From contig CANJVR010000002.1 of assembly GCA_947478395.1 (NCBI GenBank), positions 352,001 through 416,000 on the forward strand: DNA of 64,000 nt, written 5' to 3'. Below the pieces are notes generated by a model. It was not told the origin of the DNA and searched no databases. It saw nothing but the letters and a program-made list of their open reading frames with translations. Of this stretch, positions 16,209 to 20,570 are shown in pieces. The position numbers and the translations under genes were made by a program. The stretch's first letter is position 1. Each line of letters starts with the position of its first letter. Source of the DNA: Opitutia bacterium (lineage in GTDB: Bacteria > Verrucomicrobiota > Verrucomicrobiia > Opitutales > Opitutaceae).

Positions 16209-19200
16209 GTGCTCCTGAATCTCAAGCCTCTTTCCGTGTCTGATTCGCCGCCCAACCCATCATTTCCCTTCCGCATCGAGTTCCCGGCCGAACTTCCGAT
16301 CAGCTCGCGCGCGGACGAAATCACCGCGGCGATCGCGGCCCATCAAGTCGTGATCCTCGCGGGCGAAACGGGTTCCGGCAAAACCACGCAGATTCCCAAA
16401 ATGTGTCTTGCCGCCGGTCGCGGCACGCAGGGTCGCATCGCCTGCACCCAGCCGCGTCGCGTCGCCGCGCTTTCCGTTTCGCGCCGCGTCGCCGAGGAAC
16501 TCAACGTCGAGTGGGGCCGCGAGGTCGGCTGTAAAATCCGTTTCAACGACCAGACCACCAAGAGCACGGTCATCAAGTTCCTCACCGACGGCATGCTGCT
16601 CGCCGAAGTCCAAGGCGACCCGATGCTGCGCGACTACGACACGATCATCATCGACGAAGCCCACGAACGCTCGCTCAACATCGACTTTCTCCTCGGGCAT
16701 TTGCGCAATCTGCGTTTCAAGCGGCCCGAACTGAAAATTGTCATCACGTCCGCGACGATCGACACCGAGGCCTTCAGCGCGGCCTTCGACGACGCCCCGA
16801 TCGTCAACGTCGAGGGCCGCACGTTCCCGGTTGAAGTCATCTACGCACCCCTCGATGCGCTCGGCTCGGACGCGGCCGAAGGCGATGAACGCGAGGCGAA
16901 GTCAGAGGCGCTCCATTACATCGATGGCGCGGTCGAAGCCGTTGAACGCATCGTCCGGGAAAGCGACTCTGGCGACGTGCTCGTCTTCCTGCCCAGCGAG
17001 CGCGACATCCGGGAGATCACCGATCTGCTCGACGGCCGGCTGCGTTCCGCGGGTCGACCGGGTGAGATCATCCCGCTCTTCGGCCGCCTTTCAAACGCCG
17101 AGCAACAGCGGGTGTTCGCCACGAGTCAGAGGCGCAAAATCGTCCTCGCCACTAATATTGCGGAAACGTCGCTGACGATTCCTGGCATCCGCTTCGTCGT
17201 GGACACCGGCCTCGCCCGGCTCAGCCGCTACTCGCCGCAAGCCCGCACGCGCCGCTTGCCGATTGAGCCCGTCGCCCAGTCGAGCGCCGATCAGCGCAAG
17301 GGCCGCAGCGGCCGCGTCGCTGCGGGCGTGTGCATCCGGCTCTACTCGGAAAAAGATTTCCTCGAACGCCCGCGTTTCACCCAGCCGGAAATCCAGCGCG
17401 CGAATCTCGCGGACGTGATTCTGCGCATGAAGGCGTTCGGTCTCGGCGACATCGAACGTTTTCCATTCATCAACATGCCCGCGGCGAAATCGATCCGCGC
17501 GGGCTACGCGCTACTCGAGGAACTCGGTGCGCTCGATGAGGCTCCGGAATCCTCCGAAAATGTAGGGCGGGTGCCCCCACCCGCCATCGACGTCGCCAGT
17601 CCTGCAACGCCCACCCCCCGATCCGCAGATCTCACCCGTCTCCTTACTCCCCTCGGCCGCGAGCTCGCACGTCTGCCCGTCGACCCGACCGTCGGTCGCA
17701 TGATTCTGCAGGCCCGGACGGAAAAAGCCCTGCGGGAGGTGCTCGTGATCGCGTCCGGTCTGAGCATCCAGGACCCACGTGACCGCCCGCTCGAAAAACA
17801 GCAACAAGCGGATGCGGCCCATCGTCGTTTCGCGCATCCGGATTCAGATTTCCTCACGCTGCTCAACATCTGGGACACCTTTCACGACGAGTTCGAAAAT
17901 CTGAGTCAGGCAAAATTGCGGCGTTTCTGCCGCGATCATTTTCTGAGCTACACCCGGATGCGGGAATGGCGCGACATCTACGCCCAGCTCTTCGACACGC
18001 TGCGGGAGCGGGATGGTTTAAAGTTCACATCCGTCTTCGACGGCCAATCCGAAAACCCCACGCCCAAAACCCAAAACTCAAGATCTGCACCCAACTCCGA
18101 ACCCCAAAGCCCAAACTCTAAACTTGCCTTTGGTACGCCCGGCTATCGCGCCATCCACCGCAGTATCCTCTCCGGTCTTCTCGGCAATATCGGCCAACTC
18201 GATGAGGAAAACGGTGGCTACAAAGCGACGCATGACCGGCGGGTGACGCTGTTTCCAGGATCGGTGTTGCACCGGCGCGAGGAGCCGAAGAAGAAGCCCT
18301 CCTTCGCTAAAGCTAACGAGGGCGCGCCGCGCGATACGCGCGCGCCGCGCTGGATCATGGCGGCGGAAATCATGGAGACGTCCCGCCTTTACGCCCGCAC
18401 GTGTGCACGGCTCGATCCGGCGTGGGCGCTCGATCTCGGCGCTCATCTCGTACGAATCTCGCACAGCGAACCGTTTTGGAACGAGGATGGCGGCCGCGTC
18501 ATGGTAAAACAGCGCACCCGGCTTTACGGCCTGGAGCTCGAGCGGCGCTCCGTCGGCTACGGGAAAATCGACCCCGTTCATGCGACGGAAATTTTTATCC
18601 GTGAAGCGCTGGTCAACGATACGGTGGCGTTCCCGCTCGATTTCATCGCGCACAATCGCGCCGTCCGCGAGAAACTCGAAAACGCTCTCACGCGCACCCG
18701 TGACGCTGGCTATCTCAACCTCGACGAAGCGATCTATCGTTTCTACGCGGCGCGCCTCGCTCCCTCCGAAAACTCAAAGCCGAAAACCCAAAACTCAGGA
18801 CCGGATTTTCTCGGTATTTCATCCGTCGCTGAACTCGTCGACCTCGTCCGAGAACGCCGCGGCGCCGAACCGCGCTTCCTGATGATGGAAGCCGAGGATC
18901 TGCGCGCGCCCGACACCGAGGTTGTCGATCCGGCTTCGTTTCCCGCGTCGCTGCCGCTTGCGAATTCCGCCTTGCCGCTCAACTACGCGTACAAGCCCGG
19001 CCAGACTGATGATGGCGTTACGCTTGATGTCAGCGTGCGCGAAGCCGAGGCGCTCACGCCCGCCGCGCTCGATTGGGCGGTCCCGGGCCACCTGGAAGCC
19101 AAGGTCGAGCATTACTTAAAGGCCGTGCCCAAGGAACTGCGCCGGGCTTTCGTGCCGCTGGCGGAAACCGCCAAAAGCGTGGCCCAGCAAATCGCGGCGC

Positions 19201-20570: not shown

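Follow-up and report, generated by a model that had tools for sequence, protein, structure and literature searches.

In-frame insertions of genome-dispersed small repeats in predicted surface loops of the HrpA helicase of an Opitutaceae bacterium

The closest described counterpart of the repeats treated here comes from the same bacterial family, since Di Nocera et al. 2013 (PMC3733652) found Opitutus terrae to be richest in intragenic GTAG repeats, named RNA helicases and uvrA among the genes concerned and listed the HrpA protein Oter_0009 with two REPs, at 662-668 and 1241-1248. REPINs and the REPtrons formed by a REP family beside its own Y1 transposase (RAYT) have been described as extragenic (Bertels and Rainey 2011, PMC3116915; Quentin et al. 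2018, PMC6006769). Heptameric repeats are known from Geobacter metallireducens, as four-heptamer elements, from G. bemidjiensis, as multicopy sequences (PMC2700814, PMC2996986), and from Beggiatoaceae, as TAACTGA repeats (PMC4679880), in each case also within genes. Rickettsia palindromic elements (RPE; Ogata 2000, as cited in PMC3184786 and PMC3733652) are in-frame palindromes in conserved proteins, and in-frame repeat fusions were reviewed by Delihas 2011. These statements, like the comparisons made below, refer to the accessible parts of the cited papers.

In the window analysed here, a stretch of 64,000 nucleotides from one genome (G000), an intact gene for a DEAH-box RNA helicase, hrpA, occupies positions 16209-20570 of the forward strand and encodes 1453 aa. 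The original prediction, made from this DNA without database searches, held that the frame is intact with all its DEAH motifs, which is borne out by a score of 1176 bits against the TIGR01967 HrpA profile (cut-off 723), by motifs I, Ia, Ib, II (DEAH), III, IV, V and VI occurring in one copy each and by the presence of the HA2, OB and DUF3418 domains. The predicted model of the product furthermore finds its best structural match in E. coli HrpA (9GFT), for which RNA helicase and ribosome-splitting activity is on record (PMC8325345, PMC11419001), and the nearest named homologs among the matches listed belong to Opitutus sp., Opitutaceae bacterium and Nibricoccus sp., in agreement with the family given in the original prediction. 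The prediction had also counted about seven in-frame elements of three kinds; six of these stand, five being insertions (three of REP type and two heptameric), the sixth adding no net length and the seventh being a borderline fragment. The five insertions together contribute about 85 aa, or ~6% of the protein. They are not assembly artefacts, because near-identical contigs from 8 runs carry no indel at the insert sites wherever the listed contig matches bridge them; one such contig spans 17400-20400 in a single piece and its run is possibly the source of this DNA. An Rfam scan of the window returned two tRNAs and nothing else.

Segment lengths were compared over 22 ortholog rows from relatives, plus 110 further near-full-length clusters which together with this HrpA make up the 111 clusters of at least 1290 aa among 120 listed HrpA proteins. 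Site S1 (17562-17598, forward strand) comprises a GTAG REP of family C (17562-17585) and the start of its spacer, and it lies within an insertion of 24-25 aa after LEELGA, where the segment measures 37 aa as against 12 aa in the genus short state. The linker between LEELGA and LTPLGR, said at the outset to exceed 30 aa and to contain the REP, indeed has 32 residues here versus 6 in E. coli HrpA. One clear arm is left at S1, with the tag GTAG, and 33 of 34 nt are identical to an intergenic REP dimer at C8 of the same genome. That dimer has the same 24+29+24 layout as S6 (20193-20269), a complete inverted pair of family-C REPs in which a GTGG arm and a GTAG arm enclose a 29-nt spacer, with a net gain of 29 aa (46 aa versus 17 in the genus short state). 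S1 (GTAG) and the two arms S6a (GTGG) and S6b (GTAG) all show the tag and the 5-13 bp stem by which GTAG REPs are defined, and the genome contains 26 matches to the second arm of S6 at up to 3 mismatches, the arm itself being one of them, as against 0 in a Markov control.

S5 (19824-19853, forward strand), recognised by profile, folding and ortholog lengths, is a degenerate REP-like hairpin with a net gain of 7 aa (20 versus 13 in the genus short state). The hairpin is strong (z -3.4) but degenerate, with a profile score of 12-15, a gapped score that is not significant and no intact GTAG tag. Family-B REP peptides occur at the same loop in the sister genome G015 and in three other clusters, and since the sister genome carries a full family-B dimer there, S5 is likely a collapsed dimer of that family. 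S7 (20469-20483, reverse strand), situated in a low-complexity tail, is a doubtful case which may be a fragment of one family-B REP arm (15/16 gapped match, P about 0.03-0.055); its proposed reading as a REP hairpin insertion at 20467 is ruled out, the hairpin being absent (z +1.15) and the segment, with 49 aa as against 41-50 in the genus, not being lengthened.

The two heptameric sites are S2 (18048-18122, forward strand), which consists of two degenerate 7-bp tandem tracts of the AAC[CT]C[AG]A type before the OB fold, and S4 (18765-18800, forward strand), a 7-bp tandem tract of the same family. The S2 segment measures 43 aa versus 29 in the short state, a net gain of 14 aa and thus of 42 nt or six units, and the S4 segment 22 aa versus 11 in the genus short state, a net gain of 11 aa. 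Counting overlapping windows and the sites themselves, 26 and 36 genome windows lie within 30% mismatch of S2 and S4, respectively, against 0 in a control of fifth-order Markov sequence, and period-7 tracts scoring at least 13 number 32 in the genome versus 1 in the Markov control; periods 5, 8, 10 and 11 are not enriched. In 40 of 44 in-gene heptamer loci the strand that is read is the stop-free one, and tracts in genes show no clear loss of perfection relative to those between genes (P 0.05, with equal medians).

REP-like and heptameric elements had likewise been claimed to lie between genes of the window, and this is confirmed by a family-C REP at 57806-57829, a heptamer tract of the S2/S4 family at 63048-63081 (reverse strand) and, at 44708-44790, an inverted pair of heptamer tracts of a related type with a short spacer. 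A further family-C REP, at 11936-11959 in the 5' part of the long open frame 11809-14373, is coding if a TTG start is used and intergenic if the later start at 12043 is taken, and positions 53833-53902 provide an example site of REP family A.

The third kind of element is represented by S3 (18296-18323, forward strand), a short palindrome encoding PSFAKANEG, by which an OB-fold loop is replaced rather than lengthened (26 aa versus 24 in the short state, with no net gain in length). The proposed coincidence of repeats with indels in an ortholog alignment is accordingly found at S1, S2, S4, S5 and S6, and not at S3 and S7, and the proposed dispersal of the units holds for the REP and heptamer families, S3 having about one other good copy in this genome. 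S3 shares 24 of 26 nt with a palindrome that is estimated to occur in about 620 sequence stretches from a wide range of phyla, and the exact 26-mer of this type is present in records of Patescibacteria, Bacteroidota, Proteobacteria, Planctomycetota and Verrucomicrobiota among the matches listed. At least 121 loci were found among the matches listed; an open frame runs across the palindrome in 28 of these 121, with 5 tRNA genes nearby, and no helper gene was identified among them. GIY-YIG is rejected as a helper, a GIY-YIG-like motif lying within 150 nt in just 4 of the 121 listed loci; G000 has a single match to PF01541, in an open frame of 557 aa. In 41 relatives the S3 core has 29 matches versus 10 for a control pattern, too few to call it multi-copy.

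Set against the described systems, these findings mostly add another instance to a phenomenon already on record for this gene and this family, and the original prediction that nothing of the kind had been described for Opitutaceae fails on the report of O. terrae (PMC3733652). As in that species, single GTAG REPs and dimers lie in frame in hrpA, uvrA is hit several times and there is a bias to DNA and RNA enzymes. The REP families, however, differ, and the likeness of the two HrpA proteins holds at the level of the gene; the heptamer tracts, the S3 palindrome and the exchange of repeat classes at fixed loops throughout the family are found here and not in the accessible parts of that paper. 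The inverted doublet of S6 with its conserved spacing is typical of REPINs, and family C has the many, mostly extragenic copies expected of them, but 19 of about 180 loci of families B and C lie in genes here, unlike the extragenic REPINs and RAYTs described (PMC3116915, PMC6006769). The heptamers share with those of Geobacter and Beggiatoaceae that they form period-7 tracts above chance which are dispersed between and within genes, but the unit is AAC[CT]C[AG]A rather than GGACCGG, MTYCTGA or TAACTGA, and the coding copies are internal to core enzymes, whereas those of Beggiatoaceae lie mostly at protein ends (PMC4679880). By analogy the hrpA elements would work like RPE, yet they are not RPE, which measure about 105-146 bp and are CGTC-tagged according to PMC3733652, as opposed to the 24-77 nt elements in hrpA, which are GTAG-tagged or non-palindromic heptamers.

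The loops concerned are variable well beyond this protein. S1, S2, S4, S5 and S6 are expanded in 53, 32, 66, 30 and 16 of the 110 related HrpA clusters, respectively, counts which do not stand for independent events since the clusters are related; of seven control segments, six are not expanded in any of the 110. Among the 111 clusters 34 have none of the five loops expanded, 16 have one, 25 two, 16 three, 12 four and 8, including this HrpA, all five, so that at least one loop is expanded in 77. In G015 (85% identical, and sister in the tree) S1 is empty, S2 and S5 each contain a REP pair, and a family-C REP is present at S4 and at S6; at S1 of G018, G019 and G024 a heptamer of another kind occurs, accompanied in G024 by two S3-type palindromes, and in G029, a member of another family, heptamers occupy S2 and S5. 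Judging from these sequences, it is the loops and not the elements that appear constant, the repeat classes being interchangeable at one loop. Many expanded loops contain no recognisable repeat (6 of 16 at S1 and 16 of 23 at S4), which suggests that loops may also grow by other routes or that repeats decay fast. The earlier proposal to map the inserts on a structure is answered by an AlphaFold2 model built from 72 sequences for residues 400-1453 (mean pLDDT 87), in which all six sites S1-S6 are coil and coincide with the internal pLDDT dips, with block means of 47-48, 51, 61-63, 65, 78 and 45-48, although low values at inserts also follow from the thin alignment there. The six sites are thus predicted to sit in flexible surface loops.

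Genome-wide, profile scans trained on intergenic copies and our own gene calls (2480 genes, 85% coding) yield 422 repeat loci, of which 63 fall within genes (43 genes in all), a lower bound that includes a few likely false hits and in which the ortholog checks cover hrpA and uvrA; a 12-mer census passed over the hrpA elements because these are degenerate. The notion that independent small mobile repeats add loop peptides to core proteins is upheld by these coding loci, the word mobile applying by inference to the REPs, from their RAYT neighbours. Heptamers account for 45 coding versus 35 intergenic loci. Family C has 119 profile hits, 104 of them intergenic, with 0 in the Markov control at threshold 16, and a further REP family outside the census has 47 copies, 10 of them in genes. 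Family A, the most abundant (about 250 units at 144 loci), has 0 coding loci even though most of its loci have open frames, and its absence from genes as compared with families B and C is significant (P about 1e-5); no cognate RAYT for family A was found in this genome.

The coding loci are unevenly distributed, with 7 in uvrA, 4 in hrpA at the strict threshold (0.1 being expected from its length) and 3 each in an SNF2 helicase, DnaE and PurL; 10 genes have at least two loci and 5 at least three, as against 1.07 and 0.015 under a length-weighted null. The view of hrpA as a sink for repeats is therefore correct, but it is not the main one and its loops are expanded family-wide. The uvrA gene in question (L037, G000:C7:84706-90732) is of double length, and two of its seven loci are inverted heptamer pairs; by eye, each of the seven sites exceeds in length its counterpart in the shortest orthologs of the alignment, and relatives have other heptamer-like peptides at the same sites. 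Among genes of at least 500 aa, helicases or DNA/RNA processing enzymes make up 10 of 23 hit genes versus 3 of 50 controls in a strict definition, or 7 of 50 controls when tRNA ligases and translation GTPases are included, the controls being drawn from 20 random 20-kb tiles and the classes assigned by the analyst. The enrichment has P 0.0003 (strict) or 0.015 (broader), and 0.028 without hrpA; assigning three of the five controls that lack annotation to the nucleic-acid enzymes brings it to P 0.08. The hit genes also exceed the controls in length, with a median of 870 aa as against 718 aa. Helicase_C genes are hit in 4 of 19 cases against 1.06 expected, and RpoB, RpoC, LeuRS and IleRS in the control set have no repeat loci.

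As for the source of the REPs, G015 has behind hemA (L318) a RAYT with family-C dimers on either side, the variant of S1 and S6 being among them; of 28 Y1 loci from 5 genomes it is the one with such flanks. The syntenic site in G000 has one REP and no RAYT, and a cognate RAYT for family C was not found in that genome by a Pfam Y1_Tnp search or by tblastn. The C-terminus of HemA is encoded by a family-C REP in both genomes (L072, G000:C8:77362-78459, and L318); in G015 the full REPtron is present at this place, and in G000 the single REP adjoins a decayed response-regulator-like remnant. Two RAYT remnants in G000, missed by the Pfam search, were recovered by tblastn; one, at C5:141809-142334, is flanked by family B and has an internal stop, the gene before it being one that we take from its sequence to be mreB-like, and the other, at C6:112889-113239, is truncated, its ends belonging to a further REP family. 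For neither family B nor family C was an intact cognate RAYT found in this genome. A REP family thus stands beside its own Y1 transposase, as in REPtrons (PMC3116915, PMC6006769), for family C in G015 and for family B and the further family in G000, and from this association we infer that the REPs are mobile and spread by RAYT transposases. The sole Pfam Y1_Tnp match of G000 is not a candidate for the GTAG REPs, since its ends are of the GGGGTCAG type. A tandem duplicate (about 200 nt) of the start of a TIR-flanked Y1 transposase gene and its upstream end was seen at L031, 1871-2170.

One HrpA protein, P0062, has a whole Y1/RAYT domain (PF01797, 28.6 bits, cut-off 23) in frame at the S2 loop, at residues about 625-900, with REP-like peptides on both sides, a fusion that rests on one protein sequence, the best match among DNA being 47-52%. 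Elsewhere, REP-flanked whole RAYT domains were observed in frame inside housekeeping proteins at 8 of 38 motif-positive loci among 71, namely in AlaRS (L239, L240, L241, L243 and L244), ValRS (L242) and a DUF1156 protein (L237 and L238); L241 has two RAYT copies, L243 falls below the Pfam threshold used and L238 lay outside that scan. Quentin et al. 2018 (PMC6006769) left out long RAYT fusions, and in a search that most subscription journals fell outside of, we found no description of RAYT fusions or of in-frame heptamers in protein loops.

A different candidate arises for the heptamers. Read by eye, each of the 4 four-helix-bundle genes of G000 lies between inverted heptamer tracts of a type not shared with the other three, the hrpA type being that of the gene at C6:13583; the intergenic pair at 44708-44790 has the same layout. 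In five relatives 22 of 28 four-helix-bundle loci (out of 33 matches, the weakest being left out) have period-7 tracts on both sides, versus 17% of 509 single control windows, and the flank type equals the hrpA insert type in G000, G018, G024 and G029, though not in G019. Of 14 two-armed heptamer loci in G000, 13 have their arms in the same order as the C6 element, and the remaining one follows the gene of its own family in this respect, an arrangement which looks like full and empty elements. No partner gene was proposed for the heptamers of Geobacter and Beggiatoaceae in the accessible parts of those reports, and we found no paper linking heptamers to four-helix-bundle genes in the search described above.

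It is therefore to be asked why the repeats lie where they do. Most probably the inserts are near-neutral passengers, kept only where the frame, the absence of a stop and a flexible surface loop permit it. Small repeats of three genome-dispersed types would then have inserted in hrpA, giving five length-variable loops and one replaced loop, and an already expanded loop would tolerate further insertion, replacement and decay, which may be why a few large multi-domain enzymes collect many repeats. This reading is favoured by the different repeat classes at the same loops of the sister species and the family, by the variability of these five loops among related clusters, by the position of all six sites in coil and by the reading of in-gene heptamers on the stop-free strand. 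Against it stand the expanded loops without a recognisable repeat, the absence of family A from genes despite open frames at most of its loci, for which a pure tolerance filter does not account, and the over-representation of DNA/RNA enzymes, which could reflect targeting or function. Targeted insertion, in which RAYT and four-helix-bundle systems would prefer certain sites, such as existing repeats or single-stranded DNA in certain genes, and thus hit DNA/RNA enzymes more often rather than these being merely more tolerant, was argued from DNA-repair genes by Di Nocera et al. 2013 (PMC3733652). The clustering within genes far above the length-weighted null, the enrichment (P 0.0003-0.03, depending on the definition) with its excess of Helicase_C genes, and the whole RAYT domain at the S2 loop of P0062 would agree with it. 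We nonetheless consider it unlikely, since unrelated repeat classes occur at the same loops, as would be expected if the protein and not the individual element set the site, RpoB, RpoC, LeuRS and IleRS are free of loci, and the enrichment is sensitive to unannotated controls and to the greater length of hit genes.

A function of the inserts themselves, whether hairpins and heptamers act at the level of mRNA or DNA, by causing pauses, by binding the four-helix-bundle protein or by regulating repair and rescue genes together, or the peptides tune the enzyme, would account for the hairpin arms being kept in S1, S5 and S6, for the inserts being kept in conspecific contigs from several studies and for the presence of an S3-type peptide at the corresponding loop of 9 of the 111 clusters. 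It is however improbable in view of the 34 clusters in which none of the five loops is expanded, the other elements at the same loops of the sister species, the decay of S1, S5 and S6a relative to their REP families and the folding of S6 as a whole, which is no better than that of shuffles (z -0.7). Least credible of all is that the heptamer tracts are local slippage expansions, possibly acting as frameshift switches (phase variation) of hrpA, and not inserted elements: 7 is not a multiple of 3, so that a change by one unit would shift the frame, and the gain at S2 is exactly six units, but the unit recurs at about 80 loci genome-wide, also as inverted pairs, the tracts are degenerate, the longest exact period-7 run in them having a median of 6 nt, and no 7-nt indel occurs among the listed contig matches of the 8 runs, although contigs drop rare variants.

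Within the preferred reading of passengers in tolerant loops, we tentatively propose that the heptamer tracts may be the non-autonomous ends of a mobile element built around the four-helix-bundle gene (TIGR02436), which would serve as its helper as RAYT would for REP. Which heptamer invades a genome might then be set by the helper present there and, together with REPtrons able to enter the S2 loop of HrpA whole, such elements may keep rewriting fixed loops of DNA/RNA enzymes across Opitutales. The present analysis adds that the same loops take interchangeable repeat classes, with REPs in the sister genome where heptamers are found here, that in 4 of 5 genomes the heptamer type agrees with that of the inverted tracts flanking a four-helix-bundle gene, and that DNA/RNA enzymes are over-represented among the hit genes. 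No mechanism for the origin of dispersed heptamer repeats was found in the literature seen, and if the four-helix-bundle gene is the helper, that origin becomes a directly testable question. Moreover, the five mapped HrpA loops, which accept 7-80 extra residues, are useful for tagging and for reading the C-terminal region, and the gene offers a worked example of a known process, in which repeat DNA adds to a conserved helicase without breaking it.
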